NCBI GenBank assembly: GCA_017399025.1
Contig: JAFQEK010000126.1
Coordinates: 3,197-67,196 of the forward strand
Direction of reading: 5' to 3'
Length of the DNA stretch: 64,000 bases
Origin: Clostridia bacterium
Lineage (GTDB): Bacteria > Bacillota > Clostridia > Oscillospirales > CAG-272
Positions 1 through 11,012 of this stretch are shown here, in pieces. How positions within the stretch are numbered: the first letter of the stretch is position 1; each line of letters starts with the position of its first letter. A program made the position numbers and the translations under genes. Under the pieces are notes generated by a model that was not told the origin of the DNA, did no database searches, and worked only from the letters and a program-made list of their open reading frames with translations.

Positions 1-1476
1 CACGGCAAAACCGTGGGGAATTCGATAATCCGATTTTCCCTCGATGATCGGACTGAACGTATGTCCGAAATCCATCAATCTTCGCAATTCCTTTTGCTCG
101 TAAAAATTGCTGTGCAAATTCATCATCATGGTTTGAATGGCAAGATCCGTAATGATCTGAAAATCTTCGAGCAATCTTACGTTCGTCCTGAGAGAAAGCG
201 GAGAAAATGCGGTTTCTGCATGGGAAAACGACGAAACGATCTGCGGACAATCCGCAATCCCCGCTTTTAGAATTTCCGAAATACCGCAAACGAAATCCTC
301 CTGCGGCAGAGAAAACAAGAAATCCGTACAATTGATGACTAAAGAGGGAGGATAAAACGATCCCAATAAATTTTTACTGCTTTTATAGTTGATGCCCACC
401 TTAATACCAACGCCTGCATCGATTTGACCGACCAATGTTGTGGGAATCCTGTAATAGGAAACCATTCTTCGGTATTGCTGCGCCGCAAACCCAACAGTAT
501 CCAAAATCACGCCGCCGATACCGATCATTACGCCGTCTCTCGGCAGAGCGGTTTCCATTGCGCGAACAATAACCTTTTCCAGATTTTCCGCATCCTTCTT
601 TTCCCCACCATCTTCCAAAGGAGAAAGTTTCAGAATGTTGTAATCGGTATTTTCAAATATTTCACGAACTTTCCTTTCCAAACCGCCCCCATACAATGCA
701 TCCAGATGCCCGTCCAGCACGACGAGTGCTTTTTTACCGTCAAGTTCCTTCAAAAGGATATCACGCGCCATGAGAAACGAAGGCACACGAAAAATCGGAA
801 ATGCATGCCTGTGAGAGGTATTGACCGACAGCACGGGACTGTTGCCATAAACACCCGTATAAATACCATCGTTATCTTCCCCGCACTTTTGAAGATATGC
901 ATAAAGTCCGAGCAAGTTTTGCGTGCTTTCTCTTTCTGCATCGGCATCTGTGAAAAATTTCTTTTCTGACTTTTTTTGAAGCACAGCAAGGAAATCCTTG
1001 CGTAAAGCTGTAAATTCCACTCCGCCGAGACGGCTGAAAGAAATCAGCATCGTTTCCAACCCCATTGCAAGCGCAATCGGCATAATGCCGGCACAGCTGC
1101 GGTTCATAAACAAAAGCGTTCTGCTTCCATACCTATTTTTCAGGAAAGTACCGATATTGAGGGAAGTCCTTGAAGGATTCCCGTTATCATCCGAGAAAGG
1201 GGCCCAAACCCCCTCCTCACTGATCTCTCCCGTAGCGCAAACCGCAATCGGCAACAAAAACGGATGGATTTGCGGATAAACATCCCGTACATTTTGCGCA
1301 GTCAGGTCAAAAGACTGACCAAGCATAGAAAAAACGCAATCAGGGAACTTCGTTTTTTCATCGGCATATTTCAGAAAACATGCTTTATGAAAAATTCCCC
1401 GATGCAGATATCCGCCAAAAATACCTTTCTCACTAATATCTGCCGCAAGCAATATATAATTTTCCGTAAATGCCAA
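1..1476 (-). CDS. DHQS-fold (sugar-phosphate-cyclase-like) protein, paralog 2, with a ~225-aa unrecognised N-terminal extension. The C-terminus lies beyond the window edge.
   Basis: This ORF is absent from the ORF track because it has no stop codon inside the window. I translated the minus strand myself. Reading from TTG 1476 (AAGGAGG at 1484-1490, 7-nt spacer), the frame stays open for 492 codons down to nt 1. The motifs GIGGGVILDTVGFAAQQY, RIPTTLVGQIDAGVGIKVGINYKSSKNLLGSFYPP and DFGHTF...IPHGFAV fit the dehydroquinate-synthase fold, and the protein is a clear paralog of 5216-6970. All the short plus-strand ORFs listed in 13-1518 are shadows of this gene. Confidence 0.75.
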   Translation of the reverse strand, partial: MAFTENYILLAADISEKGIFGGYLHRGIFHKACFLKYADEKTKFPDCVFSMLGQSFDLTAQNVRDVYPQIHPFLLPIAVCATGEISEEGVWAPFSDDNGNPSRTSLNIGTFLKNRYGSRTLLFMNRSCAGIMPIALAMGLETMLISFSRLGGVEFTALRKDFLAVLQKKSEKKFFTDADAERESTQNLLGLYAYLQKCGEDNDGIYTGVYGNSPVLSVNTSHRHAFPIFRVPSFLMARDILLKELDGKKALVVLDGHLDALYGGGLERKVREIFENTDYNILKLSPLEDGGEKKDAENLEKVIVRAMETALPRDGVMIGIGGVILDTVGFAAQQYRRMVSYYRIPTTLVGQIDAGVGIKVGINYKSSKNLLGSFYPPSLVINCTDFLFSLPQEDFVCGISEILKAGIADCPQIVSSFSHAETAFSPLSLRTNVRLLEDFQIITDLAIQTMMMNLHSNFYEQKELRRLMDFGHTFSPIIEGKSDYRIPHGFAV

Positions 1477-1489
1477 ATCCAACCCTCCT

Positions 1490-4400
1490 TTATCGGTACA
1501 TTTCTACCAATCGTTTGATTTCCGTGTTTTGCTCCTCATTCTGAATCAGCTTGCAATTTTTCACAAATAAACCGGGAACAAACTCTATTTCTCCGCAAAT
1601 CTGAAGTTTTTCCGGAGAAAACAAAATTTCTTTGATTTTTCCGTCCTCGGAATAAGAGATGAAATGCGAATCATCCGTTTTCTTCAAAATGAAAATACGG
1701 GAATCATGTGGTTTTTCTTCCAAAATCTTCTCTGCCCCCCGATAAACCAATAATTCTCCTTTGGCATTGGATAACACCATGAATGCACCGAACGTAATCA
1801 CGGAATACAAAGAGGACGGAACACCTTTCAAATAATTGTCTTTTGCAAATATGCCCGTTTCATTTTTCCCATTGACAACGGAAAACGCATTGACATAACC
1901 CTTTCGTGAAGAAACAATCAAAGTTTTCCGTCCGGAATCGCTGTCACACATTTCAGCCGCGCAATAGGGCCAATCTCCTCGCGCGCGTTCGCTTTCCTGC
2001 AAAACTGCATTGGTCAGCATAGCGCAGACTTTCAATCTGCCATTTTCTGTTTTCCATATGCCGATTTTGTTTGTCCAATGTAAACTGACAATCAGATCGC
2101 AACCGTTGTGATCTGGCATATAATAGATGCTGTTGACGGCAGTTCCGGGAATTCTCTCATGCGTGCAAAACGCAGTATTGGAATCCAGTTGTCTGATCTG
2201 ACCGTTTTCCGCCGACCACAGGAAAACCTCATTGGAAGAATTGATACTGACGAAAAGATTTTCTCCCACCGTTTCTACGTCGTCCATACAGATTCCCGTT
2301 TTGGGTGTTCTGCTCAATATCTTTCGTTTTTCGATATCCCATAGAGAAAGACTTCCGTCAATCAAAGCCGAAACCAAATATTTTCCGTTCAATTCGCAAA
2401 TGGAATACGCTCGGATGTCATTGTCAAACAAAAACCATTCGAAAGCATTGTTTTTCAGAGAAAAACGCTTAATACTGCCGTCCGTACTCGGAAGATACAA
2501 GCTTTCTCCTTTCGCAGAGTGCAGGATTTTACGAATCCAATAGGATTCGCCCTTGAAACAGTCAATAACTTCTCCCTGTTTCATATCATAAATTTTGATG
2601 GAAAAATCACGGGAAGCTGTAATGATCAACCCGTTTCTCACGATAATATCTTCAATCACATCGTCGTGCGTATACAAACATTCGTAGGTTTCCCTGTTCA
2701 GATTCCAAAGGACGACACTGTGATCCTGATAAACGGCAACGGATTTTCTGAAATTTTCGCAATAAACTGCCTTGAGCGGAATGGAATCAGGATATTCCAA
2801 TCTTTTTGTTTCTTCCGTATCTTCATCGTACAGCATCAAGGTATCCGTAACCAAAAGCCATTCGCATTCATCCGTCTCGGTATTCAGATCCATCCATTGA
2901 ATTTCACCCACATTGTCTATTTCCGTACGGAATGATCCCGTCTCCGGATTCAATTCTTTGATTTGTCCCGACTCCGTGCAAACGTATGCTTTTCCGGCAT
3001 ACGTATTGTATTTTGCCGTAATGATTTTTTCATTCAGATCCGCCAAGGAAACAATCTTGTCCAATGCAAAACCGGAACGGAAAACCTTTCCGTCTTCGGT
3101 AAACAAGAGAATCTCCTCCTGCATTTTTTCCATGCGGATGACTGCGCGATTGCAAATTTGTTTTTCGGCGACTGTTTGCAGATAATGTTCTTTTGTGATC
3201 CGAATTCGAAGCACAAAACCATCCGATGTGGAAGCATAAACGAATCCGTTTATATATTCTACGCAAACCGCCTGCTCATGTCCCGACGGCAGCGTAAATT
3301 CACAATAGCTCAAGGGAACATTCCATAATTTGATTTTTCCGTCTCTTCCGCACGAAACAAAGATGTCATTATCGATTTCCGCAATGGAAAATACCCATTG
3401 TAAATGACCTTGCGGAAGGAAACGCAAATAATCAATACGGCAATTTTCAATCCGTGTATTAACGGTTTTGTTTCCGCGGTTCTGAGAAAGAAGGATCCCG
3501 TTCAGACCGTATCCCGACAAGTCAAGATTGCGGTAACGGTAGCCGTAAAGTCCTCCGTGAACTTTCAGCATGAGATCGAACAAATTTCGCACTGCAAGAT
3601 AATAACCCGGTACTTGACGATCCACAAAGCTGACCGCCGTAATGATTTCATGAATATGTTTGCCAGAATCCGTCTGCGCTTCGCCGTTTCCGTCATGCAA
3701 AATCTCTTCTCCGTAGAGCTGGCAGAAATAAACGGCGATCGTATTCGGCATGATTCTGTAAAAAAGATCCGATTTTTCCAATTGCAGATGTGTCTGATTG
3801 TAAATATGCAGCGCACTGAAAAAATCACGGAAAATCTGATGGTAAAAACTGTAACTGACACCGCGCCGTTCTCCGCCACGCATATTATTTTTGACAATGA
3901 CCGCAAGATCCTTTACAATATGGCTTTCAATCTGGCTAACGGGAATATTTTTTGTCAGTTCCAAAATTTCATCGTATTCATCATTGTCGATATCCAACAA
4001 CTCTTCAACGGATTCCAATCGGTCAACACGCAAAACCTCTTTCAGAAACTCCATAGCCTGTATGACAGATTTTCTAAGCTGCTCTCCATTGATATTAAAT
4101 ACGCATTGCGTTTCCATACTGTATCCGATGTACGGCAGAATCAAACGGTAGATCAGTTTTTCTTTTACATCGGAGGAACGCTTTTCCTGACACAGGCAAT
4201 ATTCCCGCAAAAGCATTCCCTCATTGGTCAGACTGCTGACTTTATCCGCATCGGAACGTTCCGTTCCGATTTGCTTATAAATGGAAAACATCATCGGATT
4301 CTGAATGATCTTCAAAAGTACGGGAGAAGCGGGGACCTGTAACCCCGCACGCAGAAGGAGATTTTTGACCGTTTCCTCCGAAAATCCGTGAACCGTCACC

Positions 4401-5200
4401 TTGAATAGCTCCAATCGGTCCGCGCCTTTGGTTTCACAACGGCTCGTGAGAACCATTTTCACATTGGGAAGCTCTTCCAATTTCGAAATATCCGCAAGAA
4501 TCCGTTCACGGTCCTTTTCATCGCGGAGTTCGTTGAAACCGTCTAACAGCAGGATAAAGCAGAATTTAGGATAACTGCGGAAATACTTGATCAATGTTTT
4601 CTGCGCTTCTTCTCCGACGGTGTCCCGGTTCCAATATTCCTTGCAAAGCGTTTCGGAAACGAAATATTCTCCGTCATGGTTCACGATTTTATTGAGCGCT
4701 ATAAAAAACGGCAATCGGCGTCCTTTGACCGCACCCCGTTTTCCGTTGGCAAGCGAACGGTAGACTACATATTGAAGCATGGTCGTTTTTCCTGCGCCTC
4801 CCGTAGCGACAATTTCAATATTTTTTTCTTTGGCAAGGACATCTTCAAGCTTTTCATATTCACCGTCTTCGCCCTCAATCTTCGGAAAAACAATATCTCT
4901 GTAAAATGACTCGCTGTACCCCTTATTTTTTATATGTTCCGAAAGCTGCGTTTCCATGCGTGCCGCTACAGGTTTCAATTTTCTGTTCTTGATAAACGAC
5001 ATTTTGCTGATCAGAATACCTAAAATCAAGAGCACGAGCAAGCTTAACGCAAGAATCAGTGCGATCTCCGGTCCCCAGCCAAGCAAGAAACTTCCGGCAG
5101 CTGAAAGTACGGGAACAATCAACGTTACCAAAAAGTCCTTTATCAAATCTAACACAACATCACTACTGATATCTTTTAATTTTTCTTTGATGTTTGCCAT
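1490..5200 (-). CDS. Membrane-anchored STAND NTPase: two N-terminal TM helices, a NACHT P-loop module, a helical linker and a double WD40-like beta-propeller.
   Basis: The ORF is 1236 aa. Hydrophobic helices lie at about aa 22-42 and 45-66. Walker A is VATGGAGKTT (aa 131-140, nt 4781-4810). Walker B is FILLLDGFNE (aa 215-224), the NACHT-type hhhhDGhDE pattern. The C-terminal ~640 aa contain about 13 blade-end motifs (GRDGKIKLWNV, DHSVVLWNL, SRDFSIKIYDM, STDGSIKRFSL, IDGSLSLWDI, NEVFLWSA, NKIGIWKT, SEDGKIKEILF and others). ATG 5200 lies 15 nt after the upstream stop, and the TAA stop at 1490-1492 overlaps the RBS of the next gene. Confidence 0.85.
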   Translation of the reverse strand: MANIKEKLKDISSDVVLDLIKDFLVTLIVPVLSAAGSFLLGWGPEIALILALSLLVLLILGILISKMSFIKNRKLKPVAARMETQLSEHIKNKGYSESFYRDIVFPKIEGEDGEYEKLEDVLAKEKNIEIVATGGAGKTTMLQYVVYRSLANGKRGAVKGRRLPFFIALNKIVNHDGEYFVSETLCKEYWNRDTVGEEAQKTLIKYFRSYPKFCFILLLDGFNELRDEKDRERILADISKLEELPNVKMVLTSRCETKGADRLELFKVTVHGFSEETVKNLLLRAGLQVPASPVLLKIIQNPMMFSIYKQIGTERSDADKVSSLTNEGMLLREYCLCQEKRSSDVKEKLIYRLILPYIGYSMETQCVFNINGEQLRKSVIQAMEFLKEVLRVDRLESVEELLDIDNDEYDEILELTKNIPVSQIESHIVKDLAVIVKNNMRGGERRGVSYSFYHQIFRDFFSALHIYNQTHLQLEKSDLFYRIMPNTIAVYFCQLYGEEILHDGNGEAQTDSGKHIHEIITAVSFVDRQVPGYYLAVRNLFDLMLKVHGGLYGYRYRNLDLSGYGLNGILLSQNRGNKTVNTRIENCRIDYLRFLPQGHLQWVFSIAEIDNDIFVSCGRDGKIKLWNVPLSYCEFTLPSGHEQAVCVEYINGFVYASTSDGFVLRIRITKEHYLQTVAEKQICNRAVIRMEKMQEEILLFTEDGKVFRSGFALDKIVSLADLNEKIITAKYNTYAGKAYVCTESGQIKELNPETGSFRTEIDNVGEIQWMDLNTETDECEWLLVTDTLMLYDEDTEETKRLEYPDSIPLKAVYCENFRKSVAVYQDHSVVLWNLNRETYECLYTHDDVIEDIIVRNGLIITASRDFSIKIYDMKQGEVIDCFKGESYWIRKILHSAKGESLYLPSTDGSIKRFSLKNNAFEWFLFDNDIRAYSICELNGKYLVSALIDGSLSLWDIEKRKILSRTPKTGICMDDVETVGENLFVSINSSNEVFLWSAENGQIRQLDSNTAFCTHERIPGTAVNSIYYMPDHNGCDLIVSLHWTNKIGIWKTENGRLKVCAMLTNAVLQESERARGDWPYCAAEMCDSDSGRKTLIVSSRKGYVNAFSVVNGKNETGIFAKDNYLKGVPSSLYSVITFGAFMVLSNAKGELLVYRGAEKILEEKPHDSRIFILKKTDDSHFISYSEDGKIKEILFSPEKLQICGEIEFVPGLFVKNCKLIQNEEQNTEIKRLVEMYR

Positions 5201-5215
5201 TGATGATTCATCCCT

Positions 5216-6970
5216 TCATTCAAAAATATGCGCAATCGCACACAAATCCCCGTATGCGAGGTCCATTTCCCGATAAAATTTTTCCTCGCTCCACACAGCA
5301 GTCAAATGTTCTCCGCAGTCTCGGCAGGAATCAAAGTTCAAAAAGCCGGCTTTCCCCTGACCGACAGGAACAACGAAATTCAAATTACCGTCCCTTTTAA
5401 CCAATATGGGCCCCACAAACGCATCTCGGATTCTTTCATATTCCTTTGCAAATATACGCAGACAAAACGGTTTTACGATACGGTATTTACGGAAAATCTC
5501 CAAAAGAAAACGATAATATTCTTCCGTAATCCAGCCATTGCGGTAAGACAATATCACACAAAACAGCATCTCCAATGCCACAGCATACCCATGGCTCATG
5601 CCGTTATTCTCCAGACATCCGATGAAAGAATGTCCGAAATCAAAATATCTGCCCTTGCTTTCCGTTTCATACGGATCGTTCTTCAGAAGATTCAAGATGG
5701 AAATTCCCGCTCGTGTTATAATTTCATAAAATAGTTTTCTCTGTTCCTTGCTTTTTCCGTTTTTAATCTTTTCAAAAAAATCCGCATCCAATCTCATGAG
5801 TTCTTTCAAAAGTCCGAAATCGCAGATCATGGCAATCTTGATAATTTCAGCAAGTCCGCATTCCGTCTTTTTCCGATTCAAAACTTCAATAAACTCGAAA
5901 GAATTGATCACAAATTCCGCAGGATAAAAAGAGCCCAGCAGATTTTTTCTGTTTGCATAATGAAACCCAACCTTGATACCGATTCCCGCATCGATCTGTC
6001 CGACCAGTGTCGCCGGAATTTTGATCCATGGAATCCCCCTTTTATAAAGCGATGCCGCGCAGCCCACAAGATCAAGCAACACGCCTCCGCCGATTGCCAC
6101 GGCGTAAGTATCTCTTGTCACATGATTTTCTATCATAATATCCAAAATCCGTTTCATGACACCGCTGTCCTTTTTTTCGCCGTTCGCGCCGTAGGTTGTG
6201 ATAGGAAATGCCTTGAAAACAATGGATTCTTCAAAAAATTTTTTGTAATATGCGGCCTTTTCGTCCGGCAAAGATTCAAAAAACACGCGGTCATAAAAAA
6301 CGATCGTTTTGTTTTTTTCAAAAAAATCCGAAACAGAGGAATTCTCCGTAAAACGTTCCGTGAAATAAACGTCGTACGCCAAATGTGCGCTCGGTGATGT
6401 ATGAATTCCGACCATCCCGTATTTTTCAATCAAACGGTTATTTTTTTCACGAAAAACAGGCTTGCCGGTTTCAAGATACGCAGAAATCAACGTTTCAACC
6501 GTACAGAAATGCATTTTACCGTCTGCGCAGATCAGAAAACCGTCCTGCCTGGCTTCCTTTTCTCCCGCATATACATAGGCATCCGAAAAAGCATCGTAAA
6601 GAAATTCCGTTCCGTTCGGAAATGAGCAGGTGTAATTTCTTCCCCGGATCGTCAAATGCAATTTGGCATAAACAGGAATCAGCGATTCCATATCGGTAAA
6701 AACAATATGCGTATGCGCGTATTCCTCCGTGCGAATCGAAAAACGCTGTTCCGCATAAAGAAAAATCTCCACAGCGTACAGCTTCTCCCAATATCCGATA
6801 TACGGAAGATCGGATAGCTTCTCTGCAATCACCTTGTCCAAAAGCATGATAAAAGCTTCTTTTTCATAGGACGGAATCGGCTCTTCCGTTGGCAAAATTC
6901 TTTTCCGTCCGTCCGATTCATAATAAAGAAAACGTATTTTATTTCCGCAAGCGTTCACAACAATTCTCAT
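5216..6970 (-). CDS. DHQS-fold (sugar-phosphate-cyclase-like) protein, paralog 1, with a ~200-aa unrecognised N-terminal extension.
   Basis: The ORF is 584 aa. The C-terminal ~385 aa carry AIGGGVLLDLVGCAASLY, KIPATLVGQIDAGIGIKVGFHYANRKNLLGSFYPA, FDFGHSFIGCLE and SHGYAVALE, which are the nucleotide-binding, Lys/Asn and metal-His motifs of the dehydroquinate synthase superfamily. I recognise no motif in the first ~200 aa. Confidence 0.8.
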   Translation of the reverse strand: MRIVVNACGNKIRFLYYESDGRKRILPTEEPIPSYEKEAFIMLLDKVIAEKLSDLPYIGYWEKLYAVEIFLYAEQRFSIRTEEYAHTHIVFTDMESLIPVYAKLHLTIRGRNYTCSFPNGTEFLYDAFSDAYVYAGEKEARQDGFLICADGKMHFCTVETLISAYLETGKPVFREKNNRLIEKYGMVGIHTSPSAHLAYDVYFTERFTENSSVSDFFEKNKTIVFYDRVFFESLPDEKAAYYKKFFEESIVFKAFPITTYGANGEKKDSGVMKRILDIMIENHVTRDTYAVAIGGGVLLDLVGCAASLYKRGIPWIKIPATLVGQIDAGIGIKVGFHYANRKNLLGSFYPAEFVINSFEFIEVLNRKKTECGLAEIIKIAMICDFGLLKELMRLDADFFEKIKNGKSKEQRKLFYEIITRAGISILNLLKNDPYETESKGRYFDFGHSFIGCLENNGMSHGYAVALEMLFCVILSYRNGWITEEYYRFLLEIFRKYRIVKPFCLRIFAKEYERIRDAFVGPILVKRDGNLNFVVPVGQGKAGFLNFDSCRDCGEHLTAVWSEEKFYREMDLAYGDLCAIAHIFE

Positions 6971-6991
6971 ACGGAAAATCCTTTCTTAAAT

Positions 6992-7735
6992 TTACTCCTT
7001 TACCCCCGGCGCTTCCGGCGGCGTTGTGGTCCGAAGCTCCAACTGGCTGATGCAAAGATTTTTAGAACCGAGCATAAGCTCTGCTACCGAAGCCACAGCT
7101 TCCGCCACGTCGGAAGGCGTCATTTTCAAATCCGCATTTGCGGAAAACCGTCTGGAAAAACCCGTGTTGACGCTGCCCAAAGAAACGTAAGTCACGCAAA
7201 TACCGTCTTTTCTGTATTCACAGAACAAATCCTCGGAAAAAGTTTTCAGAGAACCCTTGGAAGCGGCATACGCGATGTTCCCCGGGACATATTTTTCTAC
7301 CGAATAGCTTCCGATGTTCACAATAATGCCTTTGGGATACCCCTCGTTTTGCAAAAAAAGCGGAATCAGTTCTTCGCAAAGCATAACGGGTCCCATAAAA
7401 TTAACCGCAAAGATCCGCTGCCAGTCCTCCGCTCTTATATTTGTAAATGAATCAAAGACACCAACGCCCGCATTGTTGATCAGAATTTTCAGCGAACCGA
7501 GAGCATCCTGCGCAGAGGTTACAAACGTTTTGATCTGCGCTCCGTCGGCAACATTGCAAGCTCTCGCAAAATAACGGTTATCGGGGTATCTTTTTTTCAA
7601 TTCTTCCGAAAGCAAAAAACAGTCTTCCTCTCTCCCCGAACAAAACGCGATATCAAAGCCTCTTTGCGCAAATGCATAAACAAGCGATCTTCCGATGCCG
7701 CGCGTGGCTCCCGTAATCATAACTGCCGGTTTCAT
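6992..7735 (-). CDS. Short-chain dehydrogenase/reductase (classical SDR).
   Basis: The ORF is 247 aa and carries TGATRGIGRSL (TGxxxGxG), NNAG and YAASKGSL (YxxxK). Its ATG overlaps the cupin stop by 4 nt (ATGA, 7732-7735). Confidence 0.9.
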   Translation of the reverse strand: MKPAVMITGATRGIGRSLVYAFAQRGFDIAFCSGREEDCFLLSEELKKRYPDNRYFARACNVADGAQIKTFVTSAQDALGSLKILINNAGVGVFDSFTNIRAEDWQRIFAVNFMGPVMLCEELIPLFLQNEGYPKGIIVNIGSYSVEKYVPGNIAYAASKGSLKTFSEDLFCEYRKDGICVTYVSLGSVNTGFSRRFSANADLKMTPSDVAEAVASVAELMLGSKNLCISQLELRTTTPPEAPGVKE

Positions 7736-8079
7736 CCGTCCACCTTACCTTCAAACACCAGAATCACCAGATTTTCATCCGTATTATTTTCCAAACCGTG
7801 CCAATCTCCGTTGCGAGCAAGAATCACATCATTGGCGGAAACGCATTTTTTCGTTCCGTTCAGTGTAATTTTTCCCGAACCGGAAAGAATTACGTATACT
7901 TCTTCCGAACCGACGTGCTGATGATAACCGATCGTTGTTTTCGGAGGCATGACGGTATAATCCAAAAATTCAATTCCCGAGGCAAATTCCCGATCCAAAA
8001 CTCTGCGAAAAATAATTTCCCCTTTTCCTTCATGCGCAACGATATGCTCTGCGCTTTTCGTATATAAATTCGTGATCAT
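7732..8079 (-). CDS. Small metal-binding cupin (cupin_2-type; possible sugar isomerase/epimerase).
   Basis: GYHQHVGSEEVYVILSG (HxH...E) and GDWHGLEN (H...N) are the two cupin motifs. I prefer ATG 8079, which forms an ATGA overlap with the HAD stop at 8076-8078. The ORF-track start at 8145 would overlap the HAD gene by 70 nt. Confidence 0.8.
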   Translation of the reverse strand: MITNLYTKSAEHIVAHEGKGEIIFRRVLDREFASGIEFLDYTVMPPKTTIGYHQHVGSEEVYVILSGSGKITLNGTKKCVSANDVILARNGDWHGLENNTDENLVILVFEGKVDG

Positions 8080-9044
8080 TGAATCACACCGCTCCTTTTC
8101 ATATATTCTTCCGTACCCTTGCACAAATGCTGTTCGCCGTCCCATAAAACGACATTGAATCTTTCGGGAAGTTCCCCTTTCGGTTCCTCTCGGAAATCGA
8201 TTGCCCTCACATCATGCGGAAACGCTTCGCACATATGCGTATCCGTTCCGCCGTTAACGGTCGAAAATTTATCTCCCCAAATTTCCAGAGTCAAGGGCAT
8301 TTCCTCTTTTGAGGGAATGTTTTCCCAATACCCTGCCGCTTTTCCGTGATACATGATCGCTTCAATCGCGGTTGTTTTCGTTACACCCTTCACCGCAAAG
8401 TCCACAGCAAAGGTTCCTGCGGCTCTGGCGGTGATCGGAATATTCTTTTTCTCAAAAAGTTCGTTTGCATGCCGAATGATGGAAACACGCAAATCGCGGT
8501 CCGGCAATAAATAAGGAACTCTTTCCTTGAAATAACCGTACTGTTCATCATTCAGATTACAGCCGTTTACTACTTCAAAGGTAATCTGCGCCCTGCGATC
8601 CTCGTACATGATGATTTTCGGATCTCCTCCCGAAACCTCGGCAAACCGATCGCGCGGCATGGTTTCCAGTACGAGGAATCCGAAATCATCAATGATACCA
8701 CGGAGAATTTCTCTCCATTCCCGTTTCATTTCCTCAGTAAATTTGTCTTCATACATGCTGTAAAACGGCGCTTCTGCCAGTTTCCCGTCTGAAAACCCCC
8801 AGACCTCTGCGCCGCTGCAAGTGCCCAATAAAATCTGATTTCTGTATATAGGATGTAAACGACGGACAATTCTTTCGCAAATATTTTGTTCACCCTGTCC
8901 GCTTATGAAAAAAAAACGTTTTCCACGTTCAAGCATTGCGTTAAGTCCGCTAATAATGTTTTCGCTGGCGGGTTCATATACATCTGCCAAGGTATCGTCC
9001 ACGTCCGAAACGATAATCCTGAGCGAATTACGCATGGTAAGCAT
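8076..9044 (-). CDS. HAD-superfamily phosphatase with a large cap (HAD-IIB-like).
   Basis: The ORF is 322 aa. Motif I is SDVDDTL (DxDxT), followed by FISGQ and a C-terminal GDKFSTVNGGTDTHM acidic motif. GAAAGGAG lies 10 nt upstream of ATG 9044. This is the first gene after the promoter at 9090-9118. Confidence 0.75.
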   Translation of the reverse strand: MLTMRNSLRIIVSDVDDTLADVYEPASENIISGLNAMLERGKRFFFISGQGEQNICERIVRRLHPIYRNQILLGTCSGAEVWGFSDGKLAEAPFYSMYEDKFTEEMKREWREILRGIIDDFGFLVLETMPRDRFAEVSGGDPKIIMYEDRRAQITFEVVNGCNLNDEQYGYFKERVPYLLPDRDLRVSIIRHANELFEKKNIPITARAAGTFAVDFAVKGVTKTTAIEAIMYHGKAAGYWENIPSKEEMPLTLEIWGDKFSTVNGGTDTHMCEAFPHDVRAIDFREEPKGELPERFNVVLWDGEQHLCKGTEEYMKRSGVIQ

Positions 9045-9089
9045 TCCGAAAAAACTCCTTTCGTAAAAAGTATTTTAAGTTTTATATTC

Positions 9090-9118
9090 ATTATATCAGT
9101 TTTTCTGATATTTTTCAA
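9090..9118 (-). promoter_or_regulatory. Sigma-A-type promoter of the HAD-to-NACHT operon.
   Basis: The minus strand reads TTGAAA-17 nt-TATAAT (-35 at 9113-9118, -10 at 9090-9095), about 45 nt upstream of ATG 9044. Confidence 0.6.
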
Positions 9119-9256
9119 GGCAAAGCAAAGAGATTTCGCTGTACTTACCGAAATAAATCGGACGCTTTTTTATCTAAAGGAAAAATTTGAAATCGACACC
9201 GCGTTTTGACATAATTTTTATCAAAAGCATGTTATTCTTACATGTAAAGGATAGCA

Positions 9257-9370
9257 TTTTTTATTCTATAGGAAATTGTTCAAAACCGACCTCGCCGTTT
9301 TGCATTGCCTTGATACAGGAAAAGCTTATGCAGGAGAGCAATTTCCGGTGGGCATTGCCCGCTTTTTATT
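9257..9370 (-). repeat. ~114-nt intergenic element, copy 1. Its orientation is opposite to copies 2 and 3.
   Basis: The reverse complement aligns block by block with 28508-28621 and 50738-50850. The shared blocks are ATAAAAAGCGGGCAATGCCCACCGGA..., CTGTATCAAGGCAATGCAAAACGGCGAGG... and TTTTGAACAATTTCCTATAGAATAAAAAA. Confidence 0.75.
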
Positions 9371-9392
9371 TGCAAAACAGGGAGGATTCAAA

Positions 9393-9713
9393 ATGGAAGA
9401 AGCACTTCGTCTTTCTTACGGGGAAGACACACTGATTGCCTTTTTGGGCGGAGAACTTGACCATCACCGCGCAGTTTCCGTCCGTTCGCGGATCGACGAT
9501 GCTCTGTTCGAGCATTTACCGAAAAAACTCGTGATCGACATCGGACGCGTGGATTTTATGGACAGCTCCGGTCTCGGACTGATTATGGGACGGCTTGCCA
9601 AAACAAAAGAAATCGGCGCAGTTCTGGTTTTACAAAACCCGTCCTCACGCGTTATGCGCATGCTGAAAATGGCAAAGCTTGACCGTATGATCCAAACAAT
9701 CAAAAATCCATGA
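9393..9713 (+). CDS. spoIIAA: Anti-sigma-F factor antagonist SpoIIAA (STAS domain).
   Basis: MEEALRLSYGEDTLIAFLGGELDHHRA...DFMDSSGLGLIMGR is the STAS phospho-Ser motif. The RBS GGGAGGA lies 8 nt before ATG 9393. The gene sits upstream of spoIIAB and sigF. The ORF-track start at 9276 is an upstream extension that reads through the repeat. Confidence 0.9.
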   Translation: MEEALRLSYGEDTLIAFLGGELDHHRAVSVRSRIDDALFEHLPKKLVIDIGRVDFMDSSGLGLIMGRLAKTKEIGAVLVLQNPSSRVMRMLKMAKLDRMIQTIKNP

Positions 9714-9733
9714 TTCAGAAAGGATGTTTATAT

Positions 9734-10186
9734 ATGCCAAAAAAAGCCACAAATGAAATTCGATGCACATTTTTATCAAAATCCGAAAACGAAGCTTTGG
9801 CAAGGAGTATCATTTCCGGTTTTCTTTTGCCGTTGGACCCAACCGTGGACGAACTTGCGGATATTCGCTGTGCAATCAGTGAAGCGGTTACCAATTGCAT
9901 TGTCCACGGTTACCGCGGAACGGAAGGTATGATCATTTTGGGCGCAAAATCCTTTGACGACAGAAGCGTTCGGATCACCGTCATTGACCACGGCTGCGGT
10001 ATTGCAGACGTTGCACAGGCAAGAACGCCGCTTTTCACAACCTGTCCGGATGAGGACCGCTGCGGCATGGGATTTTCCATTATGGAAAGCTTTTCCGACC
10101 GTCTGACCGTTGTTTCCGCGCCCGGAAAAGGCACGCGGATCACGCTCACACGAAAACTGGCTTCACCTCTGAAGGGAAATACATAA
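9734..10186 (+). CDS. spoIIAB: Anti-sigma-F factor / serine kinase SpoIIAB.
   Basis: The HATPase_c motifs ISEAVTNCIVHGY, DHGCGI and GMGFSIM are present. The N-terminus aligns best from MPKKATNEIRCTF (ATG 9734, preceded by GAAAGGA). The alternative start is ATG 9710, which overlaps the spoIIAA stop. Confidence 0.88.
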   Translation: MPKKATNEIRCTFLSKSENEALARSIISGFLLPLDPTVDELADIRCAISEAVTNCIVHGYRGTEGMIILGAKSFDDRSVRITVIDHGCGIADVAQARTPLFTTCPDEDRCGMGFSIMESFSDRLTVVSAPGKGTRITLTRKLASPLKGNT

Positions 10187-10274
10187 CTTCGGAAAAGACA
10201 CTCCGAGATTTCCCCATCGGTAACAAACTCCGAGGAAAGGAGCCCGTTACAAAAATAAAAAACGGATAAAAATC

Positions 10275-11012
10275 ATGCCTGAACGTATGGAAATTGAAAA
10301 AAGCACCGACAATTTGGAATTGATACGGGAAGCCCAATCGGGCAACCGAAACGCCATGGAAAAACTCATTTCCCAAAATATGGGATTGGTAAAAAACGTT
10401 GCAAAACGCTTTATCGGCAGAAATGCGGAATACGAGGATCTTGTTCAGATCGGAACCATCGGTATGCTGAAAGCCGCAAAAAGCTTTGATCTGCAATTCG
10501 GGACCGCTTTTTCCACCTATGCCGTTCCTTTGATCATCGGCGAAATACGCCGTTTTCTCAGAGATGACGGAATGATCAAGGTCAGCCGCGATCTGCGAAA
10601 AAAGGGAACCGTGATCATGAAAGCCAAGGAAGATTTCATCAAAATGCATAGCAGAGAGCCAAAGCTTTCCGAGCTTGCCGAAGCCTGCGGAATGAACCCC
10701 GAAGAAATCGCTTACGCGCTCGATGCTGTTTGCCCTATCTATTCCCTGCAGGAAACGCTCGGAAACGACGAGGATGGCGCCACCTTGGAAGCGCTTACAC
10801 CCGCCAATGAAAACATCATCGAGGAAATGACAGACAAGCTGGCGCTTGCGGAAGCCATTTCCAAGCTTGACCAAAGAAGCCGCCAGATTATCCATCTTCG
10901 TTTTTACAAGGATCTTTCCCAACAGCAGACGGCGGAAATTCTCGGTATTACCCAAGTGAAGGTTTCCCGTGAAGAAAAGAAAATTTTTGAATTTCTGCGG
11001 AAACAATTTTAA
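10275..11012 (+). CDS. sigF: Sporulation sigma factor SigF.
   Basis: The ORF is 245 aa. Region 2 reads NMGLVKNVAKRF...YEDLVQIGTIGMLKAAKSFD and the region 4 HTH reads LSQQQTAEILGITQVKVSREEKK. It is the third gene of the spoIIA operon. Confidence 0.92.
   Translation: MPERMEIEKSTDNLELIREAQSGNRNAMEKLISQNMGLVKNVAKRFIGRNAEYEDLVQIGTIGMLKAAKSFDLQFGTAFSTYAVPLIIGEIRRFLRDDGMIKVSRDLRKKGTVIMKAKEDFIKMHSREPKLSELAEACGMNPEEIAYALDAVCPIYSLQETLGNDEDGATLEALTPANENIIEEMTDKLALAEAISKLDQRSRQIIHLRFYKDLSQQQTAEILGITQVKVSREEKKIFEFLRKQF

Follow-up and report, generated by a model that had tools for sequence, protein, structure and literature searches.

The stretch of DNA analysed here (the window) comprises 64,000 nucleotides of contig JAFQEK010000126.1 from a Clostridia bacterium. 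On its minus strand lies the gene for a NACHT-WD40 protein, a single ATG-initiated open reading frame (ORF) of 1236 amino acids (aa). The exact protein is deposited as MBQ3490290.1, derived from a metagenome-assembled genome (MAG) and labelled 'NACHT domain-containing protein [Clostridia bacterium]'. Its build is that of a transmembrane (TM)-bearing, Apaf-1-like bacterial NACHT protein of known kind. The new part of the finding is the gene context, namely the conserved embedding of an ATPase resembling nucleotide-binding leucine-rich repeat (NLR) proteins in a sugar-phosphate-cyclase operon of gut Clostridia. Coordinates of all features are collected in Table 1.

The operon and its sister loci

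On the source contig (L001) the co-oriented operon runs in the order HAD-like gene, cupin gene, short-chain dehydrogenase/reductase (SDR) gene, DHQS-a, NACHT-WD40, DHQS-b and ROK kinase gene (DHQS, dehydroquinate synthase). Within the window these genes are separated by 13–21-nt gaps or overlap by 4 nt, as do the cupin start with the HAD stop and the SDR gene with the cupin stop. The NACHT-WD40 start lies 15 nt past the stop of DHQS-a and is preceded by a Shine-Dalgarno-like AAGGGA ~10 nt 5' of the ATG. DHQS-b begins 13 nt past the NACHT stop and is cut off by the window edge, and the ROK kinase gene follows outside it. A strong promoter-like site upstream of the first gene was the top-scoring minus-strand site in window 1–10200, as a consensus match only. 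No convincing internal terminator was found in the operon. Judged from sequence, the NACHT gene is probably co-transcribed with the enzyme genes. A weak hairpin with a T-run is located at window 5227–5244 (minus strand), within the last DHQS-a codons and shortly ahead of the NACHT start. Its presence could reduce read-through to the NACHT gene; such sites are no commoner than in shuffled sequence. PADLOC, run on the protein and six neighbouring proteins for defence context, returned nothing significant; the neighbours are metabolic or sporulation genes.

Table 1. Features of the NACHT-WD40 operon in the window, in order of transcription
Feature	Position in window	Strand	Evidence
Promoter-like site (TTGAAA, 17-nt spacer, TG-TATAAT)	9090..9118	-	11/12 consensus matches, upstream of first operon gene
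HAD-IIB-like protein, 322 aa, DVDDTL motif, first operon gene	8076..9044	-	NCBIfam HAD-SF-IIB weak, E 3e-4
Cupin_2 protein, 115 aa, putative isomerase or epimerase	7732..8079	-	Pfam Cupin_2 E 8e-14
SDR, 247 aa	6992..7735	-	Pfam adh_short E 1e-43
DHQS-a, sugar-phosphate cyclase paralogue, 584 aa	5216..6970	-	Pfam DHQ_synthase and DHQS_C
NACHT-WD40 protein (TM-hairpin / NACHT / helical arm / double WD40 propeller)	1490..5200	-	1236 aa, GenBank MBQ3490290.1
Hydrophobic helical hairpin, aa 23–65	5006..5134	-	Kyte-Doolittle 19-residue (KD19) and Hessa-type scores, helices in AlphaFold2 (AF2) model, conserved hydrophobicity
NACHT NTPase core, aa 105–300	4301..4888	-	Pfam PF05729 above gathering score; alternating alpha/beta in AF2 model
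Helical / winged-helix arm, aa 301–550	3551..4300	-	AF2 secondary structure, Apaf-1 alignment
Fourteen WD40-like blades, aa 601–1206, two predicted seven-bladed propellers	1583..3400	-	AF2, Foldseek
C-terminal tail, aa 1207–1236	1493..1582	-	Alignment consensus, AF2 elements E656-659 and H666-674 (model 2)
DHQS-b, first 492/617 codons, degenerate ROK-like domain and ValA-like cyclase	1..1476	-	Full gene L001 13725–15578

Loci with context numbered eight including the window contig and are referred to as A (L001), E (L060), D (L059), B (L002), C (L006), F (L061), G (L065/66) and H (L067). The NACHT-WD40 gene is present in 8/8, directly after the SDR gene or DHQS-a, and directly before the (ROK-)cyclase gene in the 7/7 loci that extend further; contig F goes no further than the NACHT stop. 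The search that led to G and H was anchored on the ROK kinase, so these two were not selected for carrying the NACHT gene. Closest to the window is E, where the NACHT protein (P0003) is 83% identical to that of the window and synteny is the same, including a spoIIA operon. D (P0058, 41%) has a second ORF of 321 aa, of unknown family, behind the cupin gene, and also a phosphoglucomutase (PGM) gene. PGM is also present in B (P0001, 25%), where ROK and cyclase are fused in a 782-aa protein. The protein of C, from an Oscillospiraceae MAG, has 1256 aa (23%). F (P0113, 23%) is a short contig on which an SDR fragment abuts the NACHT gene. The proteins of G and H have 1215 aa (22%) and 1217 aa (~22%).

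Across loci the enzymes are 40–61% identical and the NACHT protein down to 22–25%. The HAD-like protein, which has no relative in the PDB, is 50–56% identical to the first gene product of sister operons, the SDR 40–43%, and the cupin 49–55% in B, D and a further locus, L069. DHQS-a, with a 260-aa N-terminal domain of unknown type, is restricted to operons with a TM-hairpin NACHT protein. Flanking genes vary by locus, so that what is conserved as a unit is the cassette with its NACHT gene. Intact NACHT-WD40 frames of 1215–1256 aa were found in 7 lineages. In operon B the gene is split (L002 10001–12787 and 13011–13742) into a 928-aa ORF and a 243-aa WD40 ORF, ~220 nt apart. Together the two halves match the single 1215–1256-aa proteins, and the arrangement may reflect a genuine split, pseudogenisation or faulty assembly.

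Related enzyme sets occur without the NACHT gene. On L069, a contig with a porin gene, a divergent HAD-like gene is followed by cupin, SDR, an 826-aa ROK-cyclase fusion and ROK, and the SDR gene directly abuts the cyclase gene; these enzymes are 39–55% identical to the clostridial ones. Conversely, P0028, a NACHT protein 34% identical to that of B, is encoded elsewhere with no such enzymes nearby. In neighbour-joining (NJ) trees of the enzymes, L069 falls outside the operon clade (ROK) or beside B (cyclase, SDR). This pattern suggests that the NACHT gene was inserted at one junction in a particular lineage and then retained, although the NJ trees do not separate gain from loss. A metagenome scan anchored on the ROK kinase yielded four distant loci, with part of the enzyme set in one of them (L058) only. 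In the published literature, no link was found between NACHT, WD40 or STAND (signal transduction ATPases with numerous domains) proteins and 2-epi-5-epi-valiolone synthase (EEVS), sugar phosphate cyclase or dehydroquinate synthase.

Selection was estimated from close pairs of operons. Between A and E, dN/dS was 0.10 for the NACHT gene, 0.075–0.10 for the two propellers and 0.10–0.21 for the enzymes; a hypervariable immune-type sensor was rejected on the propeller values. Between G and H, identity was ~71–72% for the NACHT protein, 70% for the ROK-cyclase and 74% for ROK. By these estimates the NACHT gene is under purifying selection and, in G/H, diverges at the rate of the enzymes. The flanks of A and E share 96–100% nucleotide identity, and the segment from DHQS-a through DHQS-b (L001 8250–15450, window ~1–6950) 67–87%. 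This divergence island breaks sharply at the DHQS-b/ROK junction, with dS ~1.0 in the NACHT gene and 0.07 in ROK. It is allele-like, and may be an imported recombinant segment or a pair of long-lived alleles.

The best PDB match of both cyclases was 4p53 (deposited as 'Cyclase'; DHQS-b E 2e-35, DHQS-a E 1e-34), which we take to be ValA, an EEVS. For DHQS-b, 4p53 was only marginally ahead of true DHQS entries (2e-35 vs 1e-33). DHQS-b has 'LRRLxDFGHxFSP' in common with 4p53 ('DFGHTFSP' motif), and DHQS-a only the 'DFGHSF' part. At the DFGHxFSP position, DHQS 3zok reads 'LRATLNLGHTFGH' ('NLGHTFGH'), in line with the N(L)GHTFGH of true DHQS. NCBIfam aroB scores were all below cut-off. Homologues of the ROK kinase at 35–44% identity are named 'C7-cyclitol 7-kinase' by JGI. 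The stand-alone ROK keeps the DIGGT motif, whereas the ROK-like domain fused to the cyclase lacks DxGGT (DISEK in A, NISGA in B). The fused domain is also present in NACHT-less L069 and in B (L002 13804–16152), and is probably a pseudokinase or a ligand-binding module.

For the operon enzymes, sometimes joined by phosphoglucomutase, a putative C7-cyclitol (pseudosugar)-type pathway is a reasonable label. We know of no NACHT or WD40 gene in the acarbose (acb) or validamycin (val/vld) clusters. Acarbose and validamycin are made with a DHQS-like cyclase, cyclitol kinases of the ROK-like type, an epimerase, reductases and HAD phosphatases, and a PGM-like phosphate shift has been discussed for C7-cyclitol pathways (PMC9200736). 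The enzyme types correspond to those of the operon, and DHQS-b has the DFGHxFSP motif of the ValA type. Those clusters, however, belong to actinomycetes. In the present operon a degenerate ROK-like domain is joined to the cyclase, and glycosyl- or aminotransferases are missing.

Architecture of the NACHT-WD40 protein

Pfam PF05729 (NACHT) matched aa 135–284 (E 9.9e-9, 35.7 bits vs cut-off 26.7). A profile match above the curated threshold and an intact Walker A motif place the protein in the NACHT clade by sequence. Walker A (GGAGKTT, aa 134–140) and Walker B (LLLDGFNE, aa 217–224) were re-checked and lie where the initial annotation had put them; TSR is found at aa 252–254. Kibby et al. (bioRxiv 10.1101/2022.07.19.500537) give the NACHT Walker B signature as D[GAS]hDE, in which the Mg-binding Asp is followed by a small residue and, further on, by two acidic ones. 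The present motif, D220-G-F-N-E224, has the small residue and the second acidic residue, and the first acidic position is Asn; DGFNE is invariant among the aligned relatives. The WD40 profile (Pfam PF00400) scored 34.8 bits vs cut-off 27, and many beta-propeller families of Pfam match aa 595 to ~1060. NCBIfam and PADLOC gave nothing significant on the whole protein: the sole PADLOC-DB match, mad8, was insignificant (E 0.004, no stretch passing), and no Avs profile matched. A transcription factor was rejected as no helix-turn-helix (HTH) domain is present. HTH or other DNA-binding families were found neither in Pfam nor in NCBIfam, and the AF2 model has only the hairpin before the nucleotide-binding oligomerisation domain (NOD) and a short helix after the propellers.

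Two AF2 models were calculated. Model 1 (aa 1–1200, 31-sequence alignment) reached a predicted local distance difference test (pLDDT) score of 81.7 and a predicted template modelling (pTM) score of 0.72; model 2 (aa 561–1236) reached pLDDT 86.1 and pTM 0.77. In model 1 an alpha/beta NTPase (aa 108–300) is followed by an all-helical arm (aa 300–550) and by 55 beta-strands from aa 603 on, and model 2 completes the last blade. Grouping of strands in both models yielded 14 four-stranded blades at aa 603–1206. The order of hairpin, NACHT module, helical region and WD40 repeats had been read correctly from the sequence, and the repeats are indeed predicted to fold as propellers. The initial annotation had counted about 13 blades, enough for two propellers; the two propellers stand, and the count was slightly low. 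The WD40 repeats are strongly degenerate in the window protein and in P0058. The arm carries conserved NPMM and HQxFRDFF motifs, which are invariant alignment columns. A cryptic enzyme in aa 300–600 was rejected, since this region is all-helical and aligns with the Apaf-1 arm, and Pfam, NCBIfam and PADLOC show no enzyme domain in it; what had looked like a linker is the helical arm usual in STAND proteins. In the C-terminal tail a 'VPGLFVKNC' strand is followed by a helix, and the C-terminus of relatives reads NIPGLxIxGCxFxNL.

With the whole chain as Foldseek query, full-length Apaf-1 was best (3shf E 3e-30, ~1240 aligned columns; 3sfz E 5e-28). Next came the apoptosome, Dark and the tandem-WD40 proteins Gemin5, Utp21 and AIP1 at E 1e-20 to 1e-24; the title of the AIP1 entry reads 'Two Seven-Bladed Beta-Propeller Domains'. 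The predicted fold is that of an Apaf-1-like STAND protein (NOD, arm and tandem propellers), and NOD, helical arm and two C-terminal beta-propellers are the same in Apaf-1 and Dark. Apaf-1 propellers have 7+8 blades, and those predicted here 7+7. Apaf-1 begins with a CARD, whereas the present protein begins with a hydrophobic hairpin and is encoded by a bacterial, operon-embedded gene. Moreover, the cited literature places Apaf-1 in the AP-ATPase family, while the present protein is NACHT in Pfam, and the two share 11–12% identity.

The N-terminal hairpin consists of helix 1 (aa 23–44), a GWGPE turn and helix 2 (aa 46–65). These helices form the two Kyte-Doolittle peaks of the whole protein, with KD19 of ~2.1 at aa 23–41 and 3.33 at aa 46–64. 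On a Hessa-type position-independent scale helix 2 scored -6.5 kcal/mol, which is clearly TM-grade, and helix 1 +1.2 kcal/mol, which is marginal; helix 1 would probably insert into the membrane only within a hairpin. Helix 2 is followed by six K/R residues, and these fit a cytoplasmic NACHT domain/ATPase. A single-span N-out topology may apply instead of an N-in/C-in 2-TM hairpin. AF2 placed N-terminal helices at H2-40 and H44-66 with low confidence. By sequence comparison the hairpin is real and under selection, because P0003 (83% identical) and P0058 (41%) retain two equally hydrophobic helices despite differing hairpin sequence. Between A and P0003, aa 1–95 show 57% identity and dN/dS 0.23. 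A cleaved signal peptide was rejected: the charged N-region spans 22 residues and is followed by two back-to-back helices of at least 20 residues. The N-terminus is therefore not signal-peptide-like. Apart from the hairpin, Pfam, NCBIfam and PADLOC detected no enzymatic or conflict effector in aa 1–127, in agreement with the initial annotation, which had recognised none. Pfam searches at E<=10 with the N-terminal 100–127 aa of six operon NACHT proteins returned no family; one gave compositional TM matches only.

The operon-linked NACHT proteins fall into two subtypes. Type II (A, E and D; mutual identity 40–83%) combines the TM-grade hairpin with very degenerate repeats and the extra cyclase DHQS-a. 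Type I comprises B, C, P0041, F, G and H, with mutual identities of 32–38% except for G/H (~71–72%) and C/P0041 (71%). Five of these six were seen in equivalent operons, and P0041 was included on sequence alone. Identity between the types is 21–25%. The type I N-terminus is a ~45-aa hairpin of two helices and a turn, e.g. LKFLTPILNAIPWVGGVLESLLDKIID; it is amphipathic (top 1–3% within the own protein) and not TM-grade (Hessa-type +3 to +12). DHQS-a branches deep in the cyclase tree. In enzyme NJ trees, which carry no support values, A/E/D lie among type I operons, and type II looks derived. The NACHT-module NJ tree, likewise without support values, is star-like with a long A/E/D branch, and the sister status of the subtypes is not separable in it.

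Relatives were collected by an exhaustive profile (hidden Markov model) search of 1.84 billion representatives, which gave 590 at E<=1e-30 and 6051 at E<=1e-3. Word-indexed searches with the N-terminal 599 aa or a three-sequence profile returned two proteins only and missed the 83% and 41% relatives. Among the matches listed, the median position of Walker A was 297, so that most of them have an N-terminal extension ~100–300 residues longer than here. In eight clade members sampled the N-termini were SMEK_N (2), SIR2_2 (1), calcineurin-like phosphoesterase (Metallophos; 2) and unassigned (3); P0002, with SMEK_N, adjoins a toxin-antitoxin pair. Kibby et al. (bioRxiv 10.1101/2022.07.19.500537) report TM segments across many bacterial NACHT clades, including TM-only N-termini. 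The architecture had at first been called unusual. This did not hold, as TM-bearing bacterial NACHTs are described and NOD plus double propeller is the Apaf-1 plan.

Proposed function and rival explanations

The reading we favour, tentatively, is a pathway-coupled, membrane-associated STAND switch. It is preferred because the operon position is invariant across deep divergence, the spacing is tight, the rates are enzyme-like and there is no defence context. Quite possibly, if by no means surely, the NACHT-WD40 gene is a fixed operon member and not a free-standing defence gene. Building on the observed architecture, hydrophobic hairpin, operon linkage and purifying selection, this reading proposes a ligand, an oligomerisation step, an effect on the enzymes and a product chemistry. 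The enzymatic N-terminal effector of the sampled clade members would have been replaced by a short helical hairpin, which in the A/E/D sub-lineage is hydrophobic enough for the membrane and would leave ATPase and propellers in the cytoplasm. The two propellers would act as sensor, with a protein or a metabolite of the pathway as ligand. Oligomerisation that depends on ATP would then cluster the N-terminal hairpins at the membrane, and this clustering could control the cyclitol pathway, localise it or couple it to export. The initial annotation had suggested two possible outputs, membrane perturbation on oligomerisation or membrane tethering of the neighbouring enzymes. Putative tethering gains real, if indirect, support from the conserved operon linkage, at which that annotation had only hinted.

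In STAND proteins the N-terminal module is normally the output and the C-terminal repeats are the sensor. MalT and GutR respond to sugars or polyols. Together with AfsR/SARP-LAL they are tied genetically to a sugar, polyol or secondary-metabolite pathway and are switched by a small-molecule ligand and ATP; their outputs are HTH/LuxR or SARP, their sensors TPR-like, and they belong to other STAND clades. The present protein differs in its WD40 propellers and in having no DNA-binding domain. Membrane perturbation, as suggested in the initial annotation, draws on an analogy with ZAR1-type resistosomes and HeLo/MLKL proteins, oligomerising NLR-type switches whose N-terminal helices target the membrane and are soluble until activation. 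Helix 2, in contrast, scores as a constitutive TM segment, and no homology to these proteins was detected. PMC13581612 counts the STAND ATPases MalT, GutR and AfsR/SARP-LAL among non-immune transcriptional regulators; MalT, GutR and AfsR are interspersed there with defence clades, and the authors infer many functional switches. The bNACHT antiphage proteins of Kibby et al. (bioRxiv 10.1101/2022.07.19.500537) share with the present one the NACHT module, the N-terminal output position and the C-terminal repeat sensor. Here, however, conflict-type effector, PADLOC model and defence island are all missing, the gene is fixed in a metabolic operon and the sensor is under plain purifying selection.

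Several observations weigh against a pathway-coupled switch. Physical or regulatory contact between the NACHT protein and the enzymes is conjectural, and persistence by descent alone may suffice once the gene was inserted in the operon. The orthologous enzyme operon of L069 appears self-sufficient without the NACHT gene, which implies that the ATPase is not needed for the chemistry; L058 likewise holds a looser set, with ROK adjoining cupin and cyclase genes, and no NACHT gene. The TM-grade hairpin is limited to the A/E/D sub-lineage. Since the six type I sisters do not have it, stable membrane insertion cannot define the function of the operon-linked family. Known metabolic STAND regulators have a DNA-binding domain, which is absent here. 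The wider clade looks like an ordinary effector/NACHT/WD40 conflict family, and divergence islands such as that between A and E are also typical of conflict loci. Operon G (L065 11510–19187) is followed immediately by an IS21-type transposase pair, two serine recombinases and a phage capsid gene.

Much of this would suit a stand-alone, NLR-like abortive-infection sensor, in which the propellers recognise a protein of a phage or other invader, the NACHT domain oligomerises, the clustered hairpins perforate or depolarise the membrane in the manner of the ZAR1 alpha-1 funnel and HeLo/MLKL-type N-termini, and the operon is merely the landing place where the gene was then inherited. The clade carries SMEK_N, SIR2_2 and Metallophos conflict effectors, TM-bearing bNACHTs are described within an antiphage family by Kibby et al., and the hairpin occupies the N-terminus, the usual STAND output position. 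The type I amphipathicity is compatible with latent membrane-active helices; the divergence island between close strains, the mobile elements beside operon G and the existence of the enzyme operon without the NACHT gene point the same way. We nevertheless consider this explanation, the main rival, rather unlikely. Defence genes are usually patchy, yet the gene keeps the same position in all eight clostridial loci, in a housekeeping neighbourhood with no defence genes and with no PADLOC model for the protein. The propellers are not hypervariable, divergence equals that of the enzymes in G/H, and the tightly spaced genes apparently share one transcript and one promoter-like site. As a latent toxin, a 2-TM hairpin that is inserted constitutively would also be odd. 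A decaying or functionless passenger, the remnant of a conflict NACHT gene after effector loss, would account for the missing enzymatic N-terminus, the strong degeneracy of the WD40 repeats in A and D and the split gene of operon B. It is very improbable: frames are intact in 7 lineages, with Walker A and Walker B preserved, the AF2 fold is confident, and purifying selection (dN/dS ~0.1) disfavours decay.

The linkage that supports a pathway-coupled switch would be shared by a composite conflict or competition system, in which the NACHT-WD40 protein is the sensor or guard and the cyclitol pathway the chemical arm. Either a glycosidase-inhibitor-like pseudosugar or a signal would be made on activation, or the NLR-like protein would guard the enzymes against tampering. 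DHQS-a, NACHT and DHQS-b diverge jointly as one island, with its sharp break at the ROK gene, and C7-cyclitols such as acarbose have been proposed as competitive-exclusion agents or signals (PMC12904256). STAND sensing of host chaperone perturbation is cited in PMC13581612, and a paper is titled 'DnaJ mediates phage sensing by the bacterial NLR-related protein bNACHT25'. Against these points, no precedent was found for a STAND protein that controls a multistep small-molecule pathway post-translationally, the pathway exists elsewhere without the sensor (L069), and the sequence data at hand lend no support to enzyme induction or activation by the ATPase. On balance we regard a composite system as improbable. 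Somewhat less doubtful is recruitment of an NLR-type STAND ATPase from a conflict clade, as an integral, membrane-associated component, into a C7-cyclitol-like pathway, where it would gate a pseudosugar at the membrane, or where the pathway would be the chemical arm of immunity or competition. The double propeller would read a pathway enzyme or intermediate, and ATP-driven oligomerisation at the membrane would gate production, assembly or release. If true, either case would make this the first NLR-like protein that is tied to metabolism while lacking a DNA-binding domain.

Bacterial NLR-like proteins are now read almost only as phage sensors with a toxic effector of their own. In the lineage described here the effector was dropped, and an intact ATPase and sensor were kept under purifying selection, locked in the operon as enzyme identity fell to ~50%. 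Should the coupling be functional, the locus offers a tractable natural case of a STAND protein whose function switched from conflict to a metabolic role, or else of an immune sensor with a biosynthetic pathway as output. If it is not, the gene is an ordinary TM-bearing bNACHT-like gene. The operon further points to a cyclitol-type pathway of gut Clostridia that is still uncharacterised; glycosidase inhibitors such as acarbose are among the C7-cyclitols.

Neighbouring genes and distant homologues

Viral contigs scanned for the NACHT protein and the ROK kinase contained no relatives, and the plasmid collection contained one distant NACHT protein. Many contigs carried operon G, with index blocks from 68 parts of the collection. 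When the HAD-like protein served as anchor of a genome scan, most of the loci returned were stand-alone homologues, and only one was informative. Homologues of 38–52% identity (L007–L054) were found on many CPR/Saccharibacteria and on some archaeal and gammaproteobacterial MAG contigs, which had no other operon genes nearby and at most a distant SDR match in few loci.

In a Thiotrichaceae MAG (L063 2750–12420), a 54% identical ROK homologue lies beside a GT2 glycosyltransferase and three radical-SAM / B12-binding enzymes. As neither a cyclase nor a NACHT gene is present there, the same kinase type serves a different cluster. Upstream of the operon and divergent from it, the window contains a spoIIAA/spoIIAB/sigF-like operon (STAS, anti-sigma kinase and sigma-70 family; 9393–11012, plus strand). 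This spoIIA-type operon marks the host as a spore-forming Firmicute, and its adjacency is common only to the close relative L060.

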